A DNA stretch of 64,000 nucleotides from Escherichia phage LinBro. A model generated the notes under the pieces. That model was given only the letters and a program-made list of their open reading frames with translations, was not told where the DNA came from and ran no database searches. The stretch lies in the sequence record OR896830.1. One strand, written 5' to 3'. The position numbers were made by a program, and so were the translations under genes. Positions 3,101 through 59,714 of the stretch are shown piece after piece (within the stretch, counting starts at the first letter, position 1; every line of letters begins with the position of its first letter).

Positions 3101-3600
3101 TGGCTGAAGTTATCTCTATTTCAAATGCTACACGAGTGCATTCGTATAGAGGTGTTCTTATTATCACTGACAAATTATCTGTAGAGGCTGGCTCAAGGGT
3201 CAGCCTTTCAGGTTACGTAAGTGACGGTGGAACCTCTGACGTTTTCACTATTTGTAGGTTACTTGATGCTCCAATGAGTGGAAAACCGTTTATTTCAGAA
3301 AATTGTAGTGAAATTGTTAAAATTCCATTTGACAGTTCATGCCTTTTGGGTGTAAAGTTATATAACTGCGAGAATAAACGTATTAATGTTAACAGCATTG
3401 AAGCCGCTTTCATTACCCTCGACACTGCATTTCAATCTCCAATGACAGTTAATAAAGAAACAAACAGACTTGAATACATTTTTTCAAAAAATGATTACAA
3501 AGTACTTGTCAAAGGTAAAGTATATGATATGATTGTAAATGTGGTAGATGAATCTGGTAACCATTCAACAGTCCTTAAACAAAAAGTAAGGTTTAATTAA
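3100..3600 (+). CDS. hypothetical protein (possibly virion-associated)
   Basis: 166 aa ORF with start overlapping portal stop (ATGG/TAATG coupling); no recognisable motif. Confidence 0.4.
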   Translation: MAEVISISNATRVHSYRGVLIITDKLSVEAGSRVSLSGYVSDGGTSDVFTICRLLDAPMSGKPFISENCSEIVKIPFDSSCLLGVKLYNCENKRINVNSIEAAFITLDTAFQSPMTVNKETNRLEYIFSKNDYKVLVKGKVYDMIVNVVDESGNHSTVLKQKVRFN

Positions 3601-26087: not shown

Positions 26088-26417
26088 TTAATCTGCCAAC
26101 CTTAAATTGAAATTAACACCAAATTTTTCGCATACTTCCAACATATACTCAAGGGAGACGTTACCAGTGAGGTGGATTATGTTGGATACACGAGCCTGAG
26201 AGATACCACAAATTTTAGCGACTTGCTCTTGAGAAAGACCTCTGGATTTAATCTCTCTCTTAAAACGATGTGCAACGAAGTCTCTCATTTCGTCTACATC
26301 CATTGGACAAATATAACTCTCCATTTCAGCCTCTCTATCAGCCTCCCAATCATCTTGTGGAGCATAAGGGTCAAAAACCTCATTCATCTTTCTTCTTCCG
26401 TTTGCGTGAAGTGTCAA
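26088..26417 (-). CDS. helix-turn-helix DNA-binding protein (XRE-like)
   Basis: C-terminal LSQEQVAKICGISQARVSNI helix-turn-helix; true start may be the internal ATG at 26387. Confidence 0.5.
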   Translation of the reverse strand: MTLHANGRRKMNEVFDPYAPQDDWEADREAEMESYICPMDVDEMRDFVAHRFKREIKSRGLSQEQVAKICGISQARVSNIIHLTGNVSLEYMLEVCEKFGVNFNLRLAD

Positions 26418-29851: not shown

Positions 29852-30408
29852 TTAGTGTACTTCAAGCCAATTCTTACCAACTTTACCAGTACCAGTTACA
29901 AGCGTTTCCTCCTTAAGTCCTAAGTTTCTTGATGCCTGACCATACATCCAGTCAATCACTGCTTTAACATCTTGTGTCATCTCTTCTGGGCACTCCCAAC
30001 TGTTCTCATCGTGGTATGCTAGAAGCAATCTAGCACCAATAGCTGGTTTTCGACCATTCAGCTTTGTAAGACCCTCTTCACAAGTTCTTCTACAAGCGAG
30101 GTTGATGGCTTCATTCTGAACCTGACTTTCCGAACCCATGAGCAGATAATTCAATAGTTTGTGTGGAGATTTACACCACAACCATGCACCAGCAACCTTT
30201 ACAAAACCACCTTTAGAGATTGCAGCAGTCTTACCAAATACCTCTTCAAGAGCCTTCTTAGTGGCTTTGAAGTCAGCTTCCAAATTATCTATCAACTTTT
30301 TAATCTTAGGGAGGCGTACAAAGTAAGTTTGCTTAGTTAAAGCACCTTCTTCGGTTGTTGATGCTTTAATCGTCTTGGCAAACTTCTCATCACCTGCCCC
30401 AAACAATA
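29852..30408 (-). CDS. DNA polymerase (family A), exon 2
   Basis: Begins LFGAGDEK (end of O-helix/motif B) and contains motif C LLLAYHDE; joined in frame to exon 1 by predicted splicing. Confidence 0.7.
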
Positions 30409-31209
30409 CATCTGGTCAATACACTCGCAAGGTGTACCAGTTCTCTTATGAACTTCTCCGCATTTCTACGGAGTGTCGGACTATATCACGTAGTAGTAAT
30501 ACTACCGTTGCACTTGGGAATGGTCATTAGCTTACCACCCTACTCTACTCAGTTCATACATTAAGTATGCTTTTCGATAGTCTCTGAACGTTTCTCTGTT
30601 AGGAACTCTAAAATACTATTGTTTACTAAGGTATGCAATTGCTCTCTGCATATTATCAACGCTATCTGCAAGCAACCCCAAAGCCCTATTGCAATTGTGG
30701 CACAACATACCTCTTACTTTTCCGGTTTTGTGGTCATGGTCAACGACAAGTTTAGCCTTATGCCGTGAACTATTCATGATAAAACCTTCACCGCCACAAA
30801 TTTGACATTTGTAATCACAGTTACGAAGTAGGGTTTCAACCTCTTCTCTTTCTAAACCATATGTTCTCAGGTAGTAATTCTTAACTCTACCTTTCTCTCC
30901 GCAATGCGAAGAACAATAAACTTGCCTTGCTGTTCTAGGCATGAACACCTTCTCACAGCTAGGACATTTCTTAGTAAGAACCCTATGTTCTGCTCTTCTG
31001 TCAAATTTTAATACGCAACTTCTGCACCGTTTTTGATTGTATTGGTATGGTTTAAACTCTGCACCACACTCAGTACACAATCTCTCTTTGTAACCTGCCA
31101 TTGTCTCTCTCCTTTGCTTTAGGAGTCCTAACAGAGACTTCGCTGCTGATTACCATATCTTTACAGACTTAGGCTTCCAGCAATTCACAACGTTTTACAT
31201 GCGCCACTG
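30409..31209 (-). mobile_element. group I intron interrupting the DNA polymerase gene (carries an HNH ORF)
   Basis: Exon 1 ends in U (31210) and intron ends in G (30409); P1 helix exon UAUGCGU with guide GCGCAUG (31204-31198); core elements GTTCAGAGACTA (30589-30578) and GATATAGTCC (30487-30478) on - strand; exon lengths sum in frame (2173+557=2730). Confidence 0.75.
30616..31101 (-). CDS. intron-encoded HNH / endonuclease VII-family homing endonuclease
   Basis: Cys-rich zinc ribbons (CTECG, CRSC, CPSC, CQIC) and VVDHDHKTGKVRGMLCHNCNRALG catalytic motif. Confidence 0.7.
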   Translation of the reverse strand: MAGYKERLCTECGAEFKPYQYNQKRCRSCVLKFDRRAEHRVLTKKCPSCEKVFMPRTARQVYCSSHCGEKGRVKNYYLRTYGLEREEVETLLRNCDYKCQICGGEGFIMNSSRHKAKLVVDHDHKTGKVRGMLCHNCNRALGLLADSVDNMQRAIAYLSKQ

Positions 31210-33382
31210 ACGCATAAATGCCATTCTTGGCTTTCTTACGACCCTTACTAATTTCTTGAAGAAGGTTTGTATCCTGAGTAGCTCGACAAGTCAAGATATC
31301 TTCCTCTTTATTAAGGCTGAAGTAGATGCTATTTAAAGTATGCGCATCAGTTCCTGAGTACACCACGTACAAGTCATTTTCAGAATCATAATGCAAATAC
31401 TTGTCAATCTCTGGGTTTAGATACTGGTCAAAATGTTTGCAATAGTATCTGCCATCCTCTTGTTTGACAAACTCAACTTCTTCTTTACCCTCTGTCACTG
31501 CTTTGGTGAACTCTTTATCACCCATAAAGTTACACAGCAGTACAAGTTGCGCGCTATTCATATCTGCTGAAACAATATTAGTTCCTTCTTCACAAGTCCA
31601 CACCTCCCTCATAGGTGCTCCATAGACAGCAGCACCAGACGGTACGTTTACAATACCATATTGTGTCATACGTCCAGTTGAAGTACCAAACACCATTGCA
31701 CCAGCACTAAGGCGACCATCAGGACGAATCTGGTTCAACCAACCTTTTTCATCATCTTTTGAGTTCTCAATAGTTCTGCGTCGGTGCATTAAAGTATAGT
31801 ACTTAGCAATCTTCTGTCCAAGCTCACCTTCAATCGTATCATAAGATGATTCAGTAAGTTTTGGTGAAGTACGGATTAAGCAAGGCTCAAGCAAATCTGT
31901 GTACTTCTTCACAGACCAGTTATGCTCAATGTACTGTACACCTTCATGTTCAACATAACTCAAACCACACCGCTCAACCATTTCCTGCCACTTAGGATGC
32001 TTTGTAATCATCTTTTTATTGTCTTTGAAACGACAAACTTTAACAGGGCGACCATCTGAGTCTTTCTTGTAGTTCCAGTCATCTGGAATCCAACCAACTG
32101 ATTTCAAGTAGTCTTTAACAACTGCTACCTGAGTCATACGAGAAACTTCGAACTCAATTGGTGTATATGGTGCATCAATCAAACCTGTGTAGCGACTTGA
32201 CTCAAGTTCAAAGTGATTGACAACGTGACTGTTATAGTACTTCACAGTCTTGACTGTTTTTACTGGTTTCCAGTCTTTGCATTTTTTGCCAATCTTTGCA
32301 TTCAACTCGTTGCAGATTGCACGAGCATCCTTCATCGCTACAAAACCCTCTTTGTACTCTTCACCAGTTACAGAGTTGGTTGGTGTATAGCAATTTCTCT
32401 TTTCAATGTTAAAAATCTTTGTAGTTGGCTTACCAAATGGTTTGATTTCATAAGTCTGCATCTCACCATTACGTACCTGCTGACGGTACTTTGTCTTAGG
32501 GTACTTGGTAATTCTCTTCAGTCCATCTGCATGACCAAATGTTTCAACATACTCATTCCAAGCTTTTGCAAACTCTTCTCCAGTCACTTTACCTTTGGTC
32601 TTAATAGTTGGAGGTAGATGTGGTTCAACCTCTGAAGCAAGCTCATTAGTCAACTTGTCAAGTTCCTTTACATGGAACTCCATAAGCTCCTTATCAGCTT
32701 TCCAACCATTGATAGCTTGTTGACTCATCCAGAAAGATGTTTCTTTAGCTCGCATATAGGTTTCATAAGTATCTATGCCACACTTCTTAAGCTTGAGATA
32801 CTCATTATCAAGTGCCCGTTTAGTTTTGGCGTTAATACGGATATCTTCTACAACACGAGTGAAGATTTCTGCATTCCACACACCCCAATGTTCAATCTCT
32901 GGTTTACGGACACCAACACGAGCACCCCATGCAGCCAAACCATGAGCACCTTTATAACCCTTTGGGGTTGGCCTATCCATCCACTGAACACGAGACTGGA
33001 TAAGAGAATCCTGAAAGAAATTACTCCACGGCTTACATTTTGGATTATCAAAGTTCCATAAATCAGGCGCAATGTGATTGAAAACCCACCAGTCATAGCC
33101 GAGACCATTATGGATGCAAAGACGTTTTGCCTTTAACGCAAATTCAACACCTTCACGTAAGCCGCCCTTGATGTACTTAGTGTACTTGTGACCGAGGATA
33201 GGTTCATCTGTAAAGACCCATACAGGTGGCTCTTCATCATCAGATTTATAGTCTGCGAAAGCCATTACGTGCACTTTAGTGAACTCAAGGAGTAAACCAT
33301 CAGTTTCTGTATCACCAACCAAATGTAAGTTTTTAAAATCTACGTTTTCCATTTTTACTCCCTCTAAAATCATTAACCTCAT
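31210..33382 (-). CDS. DNA polymerase (family A), exon 1 with 3'-5' exonuclease domain
   Basis: Exo I motif HLVGDTETDGL near N-terminus; motif A-like IVSADMNSAQL; motif B start RKKAKNGIY just before the splice site; the track ORF continues 41 nt into the intron to stop at 31169. Confidence 0.75.
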
Positions 33383-33547
33383 ACATTACTGCAAAAAATT
33401 ATAAAAAGCAAGTTGACAATGCACTTGACAAGGTGTTAATCTTTGCGAAGTGGGTTTTTACTTAAAAGGTTACTTAACAGTTTAACTATACAGATACTTT
33501 AAAACTCTTAAAAGATTATTTAATAGCTTTTAAAAAGCTTTAAAGTA

Positions 33548-33566
33548 TAACGTATAGAATACGTTA
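33548..33566. promoter_or_regulatory. perfect 8-3-8 palindrome (TAACGTAT-aga-ATACGTTA), candidate operator
   Basis: Read directly; ~45 bp upstream of first rightward early gene in AT-rich divergent intergenic region. Confidence 0.4.
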
Positions 33567-33609
33567 AGATAAAAGATTAAAACTTAATAGCTACTTAAAA
33601 GAGGCTTAC

Positions 33610-34032
33610 ATGCAGAAAATGTTTGTTCACCCAGACATAGCTGACTTTGTTAGAGCTTTGCAGAAGTTGGAAGAACTTGACATTGCTGCTCAACGGGAAT
33701 ATGCTCACCATCACAGGAGAATGGTTGATATACAACATGAAATAGAGTTGTCTGAAGACTATGAAGATGACTTAAAATGCTCTGTATTTGAGCATATGAA
33801 AGATGTTGCTACAGCGAGACGTAAAGCTAAAGACACAGTTGCTTTACTAGATTCTCTTAAAAAGAGGTTGCAAAGTGGTACAGACCTGTGTAATCTAGCA
33901 TCACTGATTAACGATGTTGAAACTTCTTGGGATAGGCACTATTATCCACGTTCTGAAAAGACACTTGACTTTTCTTCATCCGAAAACTTAAAATGTTCTA
34001 GAAAGAAACTTAACCAACTGAGAGAGAAATAA
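33610..34032 (+). CDS. hypothetical early protein
   Basis: 140 aa ORF, first gene of rightward block, RBS aaaagagg. Confidence 0.4.
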   Translation: MQKMFVHPDIADFVRALQKLEELDIAAQREYAHHHRRMVDIQHEIELSEDYEDDLKCSVFEHMKDVATARRKAKDTVALLDSLKKRLQSGTDLCNLASLINDVETSWDRHYYPRSEKTLDFSSSENLKCSRKKLNQLREK

Positions 34033-34033
34033 T

Positions 34034-34834
34034 ATGAATATCGATGTAGAAAAGATGCTTGAAGAGAAAGGTGTTGATGAAGCATTCTTAATCAATGCCG
34101 TAGAAAGCATGGCTATGATTCTTCGTGGCAACAACTACACAGAACAGTTTATGCCTGCAAGCTATAACTTGCCTGAAGACAAGTCTGATAACGGTGCTTT
34201 TGCAGAACAGGTTAATATGATGTTGACAGACACTACACTTGCTCTGGCATCTATTGCGGTTGGTGTTGATGCACTTGCTGAGTTCATTTTTTATGAAATG
34301 CAAAAGAATGACTATATCAGGATGTCAGACGAAGATAAGGAACTGTTGCTGACTAAGGACACTGATTTCATTATTGATACGCTTATCTCATCAACGAGTG
34401 CTGTTATGGCTGTTCTTGAGAAGCGTATGGAAGAGAAACTTTCACGATATGAAAAACTTGATTGGGGCGTAGAAGAATTAAACCCACGAATCAAAGAGAT
34501 TATCCAGCAAACTAAAGAGTCTTTGGAAGAAGCTGTTGAAAATGACTCTGTAGCTGACATTGAACCACTTCAGGTGAAAGTTGCACTGATGATTCCAGCT
34601 ATATCTACGATGATGAATATCGTTGCACTAATCCAACTGTCACAGATGATGGGTGTGAGTATTGAGTTCATTGAGGAAATGACTGGTGGCGTTAGTATGC
34701 AAGCAATCAATGATGTTTTGGTGAACATTGGTGCTTCAATCATTGAAGAGAAACTACGCATTAACTTCGGTGATGATTTTGTGAAGCAAATCTCAGCTAT
34801 GGCTGAAAAAGAGGCTGCTGAGCAACTGCACTAA
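34034..34834 (+). CDS. highly acidic early protein (hypothetical)
   Basis: 266 aa with strong excess of Asp/Glu over Lys/Arg. Confidence 0.4.
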   Translation: MNIDVEKMLEEKGVDEAFLINAVESMAMILRGNNYTEQFMPASYNLPEDKSDNGAFAEQVNMMLTDTTLALASIAVGVDALAEFIFYEMQKNDYIRMSDEDKELLLTKDTDFIIDTLISSTSAVMAVLEKRMEEKLSRYEKLDWGVEELNPRIKEIIQQTKESLEEAVENDSVADIEPLQVKVALMIPAISTMMNIVALIQLSQMMGVSIEFIEEMTGGVSMQAINDVLVNIGASIIEEKLRINFGDDFVKQISAMAEKEAAEQLH

Positions 34835-58604: not shown

Positions 58605-59714
58605 ATGACTACTAAAACTAAAGCACAGATTGACGCAGAAATTTACAAACTGGTTAAAGAAGGTAAGCTGACTAAAACAGCTATTGCACAGAAATTTAAT
58701 ACTTCAACCCGTTCAGTTGGTCGTGCTGTAGAGCGTCATGAAGCAACTTTAAAAGGGGATAAGAAGGCAACTTCTACACCAGCTACGAAGACTTTGAAGC
58801 AAGTTGCTAAGACATTTAAAAAGAAAGCTGACAAACCAGTTGAAAAGGTCGTTAAAGATGCTGTACAGAAAGCTCCGGTAAATAAACTGCATGAAGCTAT
58901 GCAGAAAGATGACAAGATTGAGTACATGATTACTGGTGACTCTGTAATTATGACTTATGGTTCAGAATCTGAAATTGTTGAGTCTACTCATCCGAACTAT
59001 CAAGAGATTGTAGTTCATGTTGTGAAAGGTGAGTTCAAAAAAGCCTTTGAATTGATGAACATTCGTAAGTCTATCGAAAACTTCACTCAGGGCGCTATCA
59101 CAATCAAAGGTGACAAGTTATTCTACGGTGCTGTTGAGATGCGTTCTACTCTGGTTGACCGTATTCTTCACATGATGAAGACTGGAGATAAAGGTTTCGA
59201 ACGCCTTGTGATGTTCTTCGAAAAACTGATGGAAAACCCATCTAAAGACTCTGTAGAACAACTTTGGGGCTTCGTATCTCACCTTGATGTTGAAATTGAT
59301 GAAGAAGGCTACATCATTGGTTGGAAGAAAGTATCTACTCGTGAAGGCAAGCTGGTTGACTCCCACACCTACAGAGTACCTAATGATTTGGGTAACATTG
59401 TAGAAATGCCACGTTGGATGGTTGATAATAACCGTAACGTGACTTGCTCTCAAGGTCTTCATGTTGGTGCTTGGGATTATGTTCGTTGCTTCTCAGGTGA
59501 TACAATTCTGAAGGTTCGTGTCCATCCACGAGACGTTGTATCCGTACCAACTGATTACAACGATATGAAGATGCGCTCGTCTCGTTATGAAGTTGCAGCA
59601 ATCGTTGATAATCAACGTAAAGTACTGAAAGCATGGGATGGCAAGACTGAAGCTTTGCATGTCATCGTTGGCACTGCTGGGGAACTTATCTCTCAGCGTA
59701 AACGTGAAATCTAA
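58605..59714 (+). CDS. rIIB: rIIB-like protein
   Basis: 369 aa ORF immediately downstream of the rIIA-like gene (conserved pairing); no independent motif. Confidence 0.45.
   Translation: MTTKTKAQIDAEIYKLVKEGKLTKTAIAQKFNTSTRSVGRAVERHEATLKGDKKATSTPATKTLKQVAKTFKKKADKPVEKVVKDAVQKAPVNKLHEAMQKDDKIEYMITGDSVIMTYGSESEIVESTHPNYQEIVVHVVKGEFKKAFELMNIRKSIENFTQGAITIKGDKLFYGAVEMRSTLVDRILHMMKTGDKGFERLVMFFEKLMENPSKDSVEQLWGFVSHLDVEIDEEGYIIGWKKVSTREGKLVDSHTYRVPNDLGNIVEMPRWMVDNNRNVTCSQGLHVGAWDYVRCFSGDTILKVRVHPRDVVSVPTDYNDMKMRSSRYEVAAIVDNQRKVLKAWDGKTEALHVIVGTAGELISQRKREI

Follow-up and report, generated by a model that had tools for sequence, protein, structure and literature searches.

Candidate divergent early promoters and a conserved, AT-rich predicted leader between the DNA polymerase gene and gene 97 of Escherichia phage LinBro

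The stretch of DNA analysed here, 64,000 nucleotides of Escherichia phage LinBro (sequence record OR896830.1; hereafter the window), is part of a Felixounavirus genome. A 5-kb query around the locus of interest matched 261 phage records, with the best match to Salmonella phage Si3 at 97% identity. The locus is the non-coding gap between two divergent gene blocks and corresponds to the intergenic region between genes 96 (DNA polymerase) and 97 (gp97) of phage Felix O1. The leftward gene encodes a family-A DNA polymerase, while the rightward operon comprises gp97, a 'minor tail protein', a deoxynucleoside monophosphate (dNMP) kinase, and a primase/helicase resembling T7 gp4. The T7-like homologies of the polymerase and the primase/helicase have already been published for Felix O1. 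The first gene of the rightward replication operon, gp97 (33610–34032, plus strand; 140 aa), is preceded by the Shine-Dalgarno sequence AAAGAGG (33598–33604). The polymerase gene most likely starts at the ATG at 33352–33350 (minus strand), judging by the Shine-Dalgarno sequence GAGGGAG at 33359–33365 and by the records of Suspvirus and Mooglevirus, in which the equivalent base is annotated as the start. The alternative ATGs at 33373 and 33382 are ruled out by a 1-nt indel upstream among the relatives, which breaks the longer frame. Since the polymerase starts at 33352, the gap covers 33353–33609 and is 257 bp long; an earlier sequence-only reading of this DNA, made without database searches, had given it 227 bp.

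Divergent early promoters in the gene 96|97 gap were assumed, with none located, by Whichard et al. (2010; PMC3185647). In the same study, open reading frames (ORFs) 96, 101, and 105 of Felix O1 were found by reverse-transcription PCR (RT-PCR) to be transcribed at ≤5 min, the phage was reported to encode no RNA polymerase, and its temporal regulation was stated to be not understood. The GenBank record of phage AYO145A carries two software-predicted promoters in the gap, one of them at the same site as the rightward promoter described below.

The gap is conserved to a degree that is comparable to, or higher than, that of the neighbouring genes. In a set of 22 Felixounavirus sequences, nucleotide diversity amounts to 0.003 at 33510–33709 and 0.012 at 33310–33509, versus 0.03–0.06 in the flanking coding DNA. 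In comparison with Suspvirus and Mooglevirus, the gap is 80–85% identical, the N-terminal part of the polymerase about 85%, and gp97 68–77%. Non-coding DNA conserved to this extent must be dense in function. On direct reading of the sequence, every motif that had been listed earlier was found where it had been placed, including the two copies of (T)AAAAGATTA at 33509/33510–33518 and 33570/33572–33579. Additionally, the gap contains a perfect 15-bp palindrome, AGCTTTT-A-AAAAGCT (33525–33539), and an imperfect dyad with 27-nt arms that encloses it (33494–33548; centre at 33521), both of which had been overlooked. The larger dyad folds as DNA with -9.3 kcal/mol (z = -3.2) and is nearly invariant, so that covariation is uninformative about it either way.

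The gap was scanned for a minimal sigma70 promoter grammar (TTGNNN, 16–18 bp, TANNNT), which gave exactly one candidate on each strand. The rightward candidate, P_R (33413–33442, plus strand), is composed of the -35 element TTGACA (33413–33418), an 18-bp spacer, and the -10 element TAATCT (33437–33442), with a TG at 33434–33435 (TGtTAATCT). The leftward candidate, P_L (33383–33411, minus strand), has the -35 element TTGCTT (33411 to 33406), a 17-bp spacer, and the -10 element TAATGT (33388 to 33383). Transcription is predicted to start at about 33449 and 33376, respectively. The two -35 elements stand 1 bp apart within AAAAAGCAAGTTGACAA, a block that is invariant in nine sequences from three genera (Felixounavirus, Suspvirus, and Mooglevirus). 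Both TTGACA hexamers of the gap are invariant in the nine sequences as well. The -10 elements stay TAnnnT in the three genera while their middle bases change; for P_L, the -35 is invariant and the -10 reads TAGGGT, TAAGGT, or TAGTGT. An A-rich, UP-like tract, AAAAAATTATAAAAAGCAAG (33393–33412, plus strand), lies upstream of the P_R -35, and a G-rich block, GCGAAGTGGG (33446–33455, plus strand), with 8 of its 10 columns invariant, surrounds the predicted start. Kolesnikvirus (Erwinia phages), Pectobacterium phage Arno162, and Yersinia phage P778 have a single cTTGACA-17-TAnnnT in the same position, ahead of the gp97 homologue. The -35 TTGACA is present in all six lineages examined, and the -10 elements of the other lineages are TACATT, TAATGT, TAGGCT, and TAAAGT. 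The earlier description of the gap as a divergent control region with early promoters is supported by one sigma70-type candidate per strand, arranged back to back in an invariant block, and by the published RT-PCR data. Conservation throughout the subfamily does not extend to the leftward half of the gap, since the Erwinia-phage lineage (Kolesnikvirus, PMBT37) carries an inserted gene for an HNH homing endonuclease that separates the polymerase gene from the control region.

The sequence-only reading had also pointed to 'two tandem TTGACA' hexamers. Both are present and conserved, and the doublet recurs elsewhere, but the second hexamer (33425–33430) lies within the spacer of P_R and has no -10 element at 16–18 bp. 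It is probably no independent promoter, yet it is invariant. The combination of an A-tract with the double TTGACA was found at two further sites in Felixounavirus genomes, both outside the window, and in Erwinia phage phiEa21-4. One of the two paralogous modules is located upstream of an early gene (Si3 at about 75.57 kb) and the other at the divergent junction of genes 40 and 41; in both, the A-tract precedes the TTGACA doublet. The matches are at L048 4673, L060 74 and 10843, L058 2677 (minus strand), and L169 16494 (phiEa21-4), these labels denoting sequences of our collection. In one of these modules (B), a block similar to GCGAAGTGGG, namely CGAGGGGG, follows the -10 element. By its sequence, the module defines a putative promoter class that is represented three times per genome. 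A further BLAST match to the module, at 58817 of the window, was rejected, being located in coding DNA and having no TTGACA doublet.

The sequence downstream of P_R is extreme in composition. Positions 33454–33603 are 79% AT, versus a mean of 61%, and form the least stable stretch of the 64-kb window, ranking first at scan widths of 60–250 bp. This AT-rich leader is not low-complexity filler. It carries seven octamers of the form CTT(A/T)A(A/C/T)AG plus CTATACAG, all on the plus strand: CTTAAAAG (33461), CTTAACAG (33473), CTATACAG (33486), CTTAAAAG (33507), CTTTAAAG (33538), CTTAATAG (33583), and CTTAAAAG (33594). The array of CTTAACAG-like units thus extends over 33461–33601, and its last member overlaps the Shine-Dalgarno sequence of gp97. 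Octamers 1–3 are spaced by 12–13 bp, a periodicity that the sequence-only reading had missed. The three copies of CTTAAAAG noticed by that reading are real, and the window holds 14 copies against 5.2 ± 2.2 expected; however, CTTAAAAG is not a stand-alone motif but one variant of the octamer family, which is repeated massively in a distant non-coding region.

The CTTWAHAG family is represented by 7 copies in the 161-nt leader, as compared to 0.34 ± 0.57 in shuffled sequences, and none of 500–1000 shuffles reached 7. These statistics are generous, since the pattern was defined after the sequence had been seen. The recurrence of octamers across lineages and their position-specific conservation are independent of this post hoc choice. 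In the three genera, 3 of 42 columns vary in the octamer core (six positions), compared with 6 of 14 at positions 4 and 6 and 35 of 90 in the leader between octamers (core versus spacer, Fisher p = 1.4e-4). In Kolesnikvirus, Arno162, and P778, the promoter is followed by units of CTTAACAG, CTAAACAG, CTTTAAAG, CTTAATAG, and CTTTACAG at 11–14-bp spacing, with spacers that cannot be aligned. Octamer arrays 3' of the promoter were present in every Ounavirinae lineage examined.

It is conceivable that the motifs other than the promoter arose by chance in DNA that is AT-rich and of low complexity. An inverted repeat with perfect 8-bp arms, such as the 19-bp palindrome described below, occurs in 14% of composition-matched shuffles of the gap, and the fold of the 180-nt leader is only marginally better than that of shuffled sequences (z = -1.85). 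On the other hand, diversity in the gap is 10-fold below that of the flanking genes, conservation is position-specific and accompanied by compensatory changes, the octamer count is not reached by any shuffle, and the architecture is common to the whole subfamily. We therefore regard this explanation as very improbable. Both the palindrome and the repeated 8-mers are genuine elements under selection, albeit of an ordinary regulatory kind.

The distant non-coding region was found outside the window. In Si3 (KY626162.1), about 1.8 kb at the convergent junction of genes 23 and 24 (about 76,050–77,800; L048 5150–6900) carries no annotated genes and is packed with repeats. These include five perfect tandem copies of CTTAACATTTT, more than 12 copies of CTGTTAAG (the complement of CTTAACAG) or TTGTTAAG, units of CTTAAAAG and CTATAAAG, and tandem repeats of about 38 bp (GTTACTTCAAAGTAACGTAAAAGGGGCT...). 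Sense-oriented octamers number 11 and 15, as opposed to 1.2–1.6 expected. The equivalent region of phiEa21-4 (L169 16,470–17,660) contains similar arrays together with a further double-TTGACA element. When the whole collection was scanned for tandem copies of CTGTTAAG, the matches were mostly to unrelated contigs and contributed nothing further. Direct terminal repeats have been reported for Felixounaviruses.

A role in an mRNA leader alone is hard put to explain the octamers of the 1.8-kb region, which a DNA-binding factor may read. The octamers might be the DNA sites of one cooperative, sequence-specific protein of phage or host origin that coats both the gap and the 1.8-kb arrays; with the latter presumed to lie near the terminal repeats, such a protein could link control of the early promoters to replication or packaging. 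This explanation would account for the 7- to 13-fold enrichment of CTTAACAG/CTGTTAAG, CTTAAAAG, and CTATAAAG at 76.0–77.8 kb of Si3, in both orientations and partly as perfect tandems, and for the like enrichment in phiEa21-4. The 12–13-bp spacing and the degenerate positions 4 and 6 resemble an array of protein sites, and the context of the P_R -35, CTTGACAAG, resembles an octamer. However, no candidate protein was identified, the motif is short, AT-rich, and defined post hoc, and its uniform sense orientation in the gap is also explained by a role in RNA. We consider a protein of this kind unlikely, though worth keeping in mind. An extended version, in which the CTTAACAG-family octamers form a genome-wide cis-code read by one hypothetical protein that couples shut-off of early transcription to replication initiation or packaging, with the gap possibly doubling as a transcription-activated origin, appears less probable still. 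By analogy with phi29 p6 or omega, that protein would bind the periodic arrays in the double-TTGACA leaders and in the 1.8-kb region.

The perfect 19-bp palindrome, TAACGTAT-AGA-ATACGTTA (33548–33566, plus strand), contains a -10-like TAGAAT (33555–33560) and is followed by AGATAAAAG (33567–33575). Its distance to the first early gene, given earlier as 'about 45 bp', is corrected here: it ends 43 bp before the gp97 ATG. Further copies, for which the sequence-only reading had suggested a search, are absent from the window at ≤3 mismatches and from the remaining ~21 kb of Si3 at ≤4 mismatches. Given its frequency in shuffled gaps, the palindrome is not significant alone, and its weight comes from conservation. 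The inner 7 bp are complementary in 9 of 9 sequences from the three genera. The pair at position 7 is A-T in Felixounavirus but T-A in the remaining sequences; position 5 is C-G, but T-A in the Moogle/Michonne/3HA14 clade, in which the loop AAC replaces AGA. Thus, two of eight pairs changed on both sides and none was broken in the core; this covariation score was reached by 1 of 500 shuffles and dropped to ≤0 when the partner strand was slid. The isolated hairpin has a free energy of -5.4 kcal/mol (DNA parameters; z = -3.6). Within the window as a whole, perfect inverted repeats (arms ≥8 bp, spacer 0–6) are depleted, with 4 matches at 3 sites versus 10.7 ± 4.2 in dinucleotide shuffles; besides the palindrome of the gap, the sites are those at 3477 (CATTTTTTCAAAAAATG) and 58536 (AAGGGGCTTTGAAGCCCCTT).

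The early gene cluster of Si3, at about 72.1–74.7 kb (L048 1186–3791), was found to contain five intergenic stem-loops of ~57 nt, with the lower stem AAAGTACTTTA/TAAAGAGCTTT and the upper stem GGGGCTTA/TAAGCCCC or a compensated variant. Their free energies range from -18 to -22 kcal/mol, none has a T-run, and each precedes a small early gene, ~45 nt from its start codon. In the Felix O1 genome paper (PMC3185647), two of the five were listed merely as '57-bp direct repeats'. The stems are GC-rich and unrelated in sequence to the palindrome of the gap, but the flanks of the latter, CTTTA...stem...AGATAAA(A)G, and its 43-nt distance to the ATG match these stem-loops, which have the same AGATAAAG 3' flank. 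Preservation of the structure while the sequence varies, together with compensatory change, favours a stem-loop formed in the transcript or in single-stranded DNA.

The sequence-only reading had taken the palindrome for an operator or another protein-binding site. A candidate partner is encoded in the same genome: a helix-turn-helix (HTH) protein of the Cro/CI type (26091–26417, minus strand; Pfam HTH_3, E = 6e-10), in the leftward operon, 7 kb away. Occurrence of an HTH_3 protein in a virulent phage is an observation of its own; the gene is confined to Felixounavirus, Suspvirus, and Mooglevirus, Kolesnikvirus and its allies having none. If the palindrome were an operator, a dimer of this protein would sit between P_R and gp97, over the TAGAAT, and throttle the rightward replication operon by acting as a roadblock or by repressing a weak second promoter. 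The perfect 8-3-8 dyad is indeed operator-sized (14–20-bp class) and promoter-proximal, and its half-site changes are symmetric. The HTH gene and the palindrome-bearing gap each occur in 258 records with identical organism counts, while 41 further records (Kolesnikvirus/Erwinia, Pectobacterium, and Yersinia phages) have gp97 but neither the HTH gene nor the palindrome. This co-occurrence, however, comes from a single clade and counts, in effect, as one evolutionary event. In the clade that has the C-G to T-A change and the altered loop, HTH helix 2 also displays K-to-T and I-to-V replacements; yet half-site positions 5 and 7 changed with hardly any change in the recognition helix (QARVSNI), whose near-invariance makes covariation of helix and half-site uninformative. 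Arno162 has a different 10-bp palindrome (ATGTTAACAT), unable to form a hairpin, near the same place, as would suit an operator. On the other side, the palindrome of the gap is present in one copy per genome, lies ~105 bp downstream of the P_R -10, and leaves the P_R core uncovered. Symmetric double changes would require co-evolution of the protein, whereas a hairpin accounts for them directly, and the flanks resemble those of other stem-loops having unrelated stems. Of the operator claim, the co-occurrence with an HTH gene stands, but the compensatory changes and the likeness to leader stem-loops fit a hairpin at least equally well. We rank the putative hairpin somewhat above the operator, which we view as possible but doubtful.

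Several other candidate functions were considered for the palindrome and the leader. A second sigma70 promoter using the TAGAAT of the palindrome was rejected, as there is no -35 element at 16–18 bp, and the better alignment partner of a 'TATAAT' found at the equivalent position in Kolesnikvirus is the AGATAAAG flank. The hairpin is similar in shape to N4-type hairpin promoters, which have a 5–7-bp stem and a 3-nt loop and are read by a virion RNA polymerase, but Felix O1 was reported to encode no RNA polymerase (PMC3185647). No intrinsic terminators were predicted in 33000–34000, and no T-run follows the 19-bp palindrome on either strand. An Rfam scan of 33000–34200 (E ≤1) gave no match in the gap. 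A lambda-type nut site was dismissed: boxA (GCTCTTTA-like) is represented only by CTCTTAA at 33505, which is not conserved in relatives, and lambda boxB has a 5-bp stem with a pentaloop, unlike the 7–8-bp stem and 3-nt loop found here. A Rho rut site was rejected on the composition of the leader (C = 17 versus G = 21), and a leader peptide is excluded by 1-nt indels among relatives. Pairing of TAATCTTT (33437) with AAAGATTA (33511 and 33572) was dropped, since the relatives gave one consistent, one wobble, and one broken case. A structure involving the whole leader was likewise rejected in view of its marginal z-score and of covariation that is confined to the hairpin.

The gap could also be a primary replication origin of the transcription-activated type known from T7 and T4. 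Transcripts from P_R would enter the AT-rich tract and form an R-loop or primer, upon which the T7-like primase/helicase and polymerase encoded on either side would load. The anatomy is suggestive: the 150 bp behind the promoter are the richest in AT and the least stable of the 64 kb, the gap is located between the genes for the T7-like family-A polymerase and the gp4-like primase/helicase, conservation is extreme, and origins typically contain direct repeats and dyads. At 33–34 kb, the cumulative GC skew passes through a local minimum, but this switch is uninformative, since it coincides with the change in gene orientation. The gap lacks DnaA boxes, integration host factor (IHF) sites, GATC, and T7-type primase sites ((G/T)GGTC), although the T7 consensus may not be that of the primase of this phage. 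No recognisable initiator gene was found, gp97 being without a DNA-binding fold match. The promoter module occurs three times per genome, and a low-complexity unwinding element needs no base-by-base conservation. An origin of the iteron/DnaA type, as in lambda, P4, and plasmids, is similarly disfavoured by the lack of a DnaA box or IHF consensus in the gap and of a recognised adjacent initiator. A search of the literature found no mapping of a replication origin in Felix O1-type phages. The origin reading has no positive support beyond the anatomy, and we judge it rather improbable.

Our preferred explanation is that the gap represents an early promoter pair together with a cis-regulatory leader of the replication module, which contains the octamers and the palindrome stem-loop; we give it an even chance of being correct. 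Host sigma70 RNA polymerase would bind the two back-to-back promoters within AAAAAGCAAGTTGACAA. From P_L (TTGCTT-17-TAATGT), it would proceed leftward into the DNA polymerase operon, and from P_R (A-tract, TTGACA-18-TGtTAATCT) rightward into gp97, the dNMP kinase, and the primase/helicase. The P_R transcript would begin with an A/U-rich leader of ~160 nt carrying two cis-elements: the periodic array of CUUAACAG-like octamers and the stem-loop ~43 nt before the start codon, which would have the same layout as those preceding other early genes. Most likely, these elements would determine how stable the early message is or how it is processed or translated, or they would bind some factor. The motifs, their pattern of conservation, and the paralogous promoter modules are directly visible in the genomes compared, and early transcription of the flanking genes was demonstrated by published RT-PCR (PMC3185647); the start sites, transcription of the leader as a single piece, and action of the palindrome as RNA are what we infer.

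A number of observations weigh against this explanation. The -10 element of P_R matches TATAAT at 3 of 6 positions only, although A2 and T6 are kept and TGt stands in front, and a standard promoter scan did not call P_R. In the literature, no transcription-start mapping was found for any Ounavirinae phage. The hairpin stem is weak, with 7 bp that are mostly A-U, and reaches just -3.2 kcal/mol in Moogle. In the minimum-energy fold of the full 180-nt leader, itself marginal, the hairpin arms pair elsewhere, although the RNAalifold consensus does contain the hairpin; the covariation term of that consensus is -0.08 kcal/mol, with almost none outside the 19-bp hairpin. Compensatory support for the stem amounts to only two events, and roles in RNA and DNA are inseparable on this basis, since symmetric changes would preserve a DNA dyad too. 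The palindrome is absent from Kolesnikvirus, Arno162, and P778. As for the octamers, they are equally dense in the 1.8-kb region, in both orientations, while the leaders of the two paralogous promoters are weakly enriched, with 2 and 3 copies.

The neighbouring genes display several features of their own. gp97 has no Pfam match, belongs to a PHROG without assigned function, and has no sequence match in the PDB. Its AlphaFold model (mean confidence score, pLDDT, of 73) is an all-helical hairpin with non-specific Foldseek matches (E >0.05). It has no match to a DNA-binding family or fold, and as a protein that binds the gap, gp97 is neither supported nor excluded. The DNA polymerase is encoded in two pieces, 31172–33352 and 29855–30406 (minus strand), within 29855–33352 of the window, as in Si3; an ORF for an endonuclease VII/zinc-ribbon protein (30619–31101) sits between them, while most relatives have a single gene of ~2.7 kb. 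Many records annotate gene 98 (34034–34834; PHROG 4251), which is without a Pfam match, as 'minor tail protein'. This label looks doubtful for a gene that belongs to the early replication operon, where it follows gp97 and precedes the dNMP kinase. Also, three records assigned to other hosts, MG065664.1 and MG065668.1 (Campylobacter phages A132 and A126) and GU169904.1 (Staphylococcus phage SA1), contain Felixounavirus sequence that is 98–100% identical at this locus, which probably reflects contamination or chimeric assembly.

The region as a whole is of an ordinary phage regulatory kind and of modest novelty, with no departure from known kinds. What is new is an explicit promoter module, a selected octamer family that is common to the gap and the large non-coding region, and a co-varying dyad. 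Felix O1 and its relatives serve in typing, biocontrol, and therapy. For these phages, the comparative footprint provides testable start sites, a promoter module present thrice per genome, and two classes of conserved cis-elements. The octamers, which occur in the large non-coding region as well, may be the sign of a DNA- or RNA-binding factor that has not been described so far.

The proposed arrangement may be compared with well-studied systems. The early promoters A1–A3 of T7 and P25/PN25 of T5 are read by host polymerase, as P_R would be, have a consensus -35 with an upstream A-tract, and stand at the head of early genes. P_R differs from them in its weak, TG-aided -10 (TAATCT), in the second TTGACA within the spacer, and in being part of a back-to-back pair with -35 elements 1 bp apart. 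Stem-loops in phage early mRNAs include the RNase III sites of T7, and 5' stabiliser hairpins are known from the ompA and T4 gene 32 mRNAs. The putative hairpin of the gap resembles such stem-loops of 5' untranslated and intercistronic regions in its fixed distance before the start codon, its occurrence at several early genes, and the retention of structure while the stem sequence varies. Unlike a canonical RNase III substrate, its stem of 7–8 bp is A/U-rich and too short, and it may act as DNA. The lambdoid Cro/CI operators share with the palindrome a dyad of 17–19 bp and a Cro/CI-type HTH gene in the same genome; they are, however, tripartite and overlap the promoter core, whereas the site examined here is single, lies off the core, and belongs to a virulent phage. 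Iteron arrays are bound cooperatively by small regulators, as are the omega heptads of pSM19035, parC of plasmid R1 by ParR, and the sites of phi29 p6 at genome ends and early promoters. Like these arrays, the octamers consist of many units of 7–11 bp that are spaced by roughly one helical turn, run in both orientations, and occur at promoters and close to what are presumed to be the genome ends; their period of 12–13 bp is different, and any function as protein sites is putative. Finally, the order of a promoter followed by the most meltable DNA, with T7-like replication genes adjoining, recalls the primary origin of T7 (phi1.1A/B and an AT-rich tract) and oriF/oriG of T4 (a promoter and an unwinding element). 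In LinBro, the candidate promoters are of the host type rather than those of a phage polymerase, and the AT tract is conserved base by base and built of octamers and dyads.

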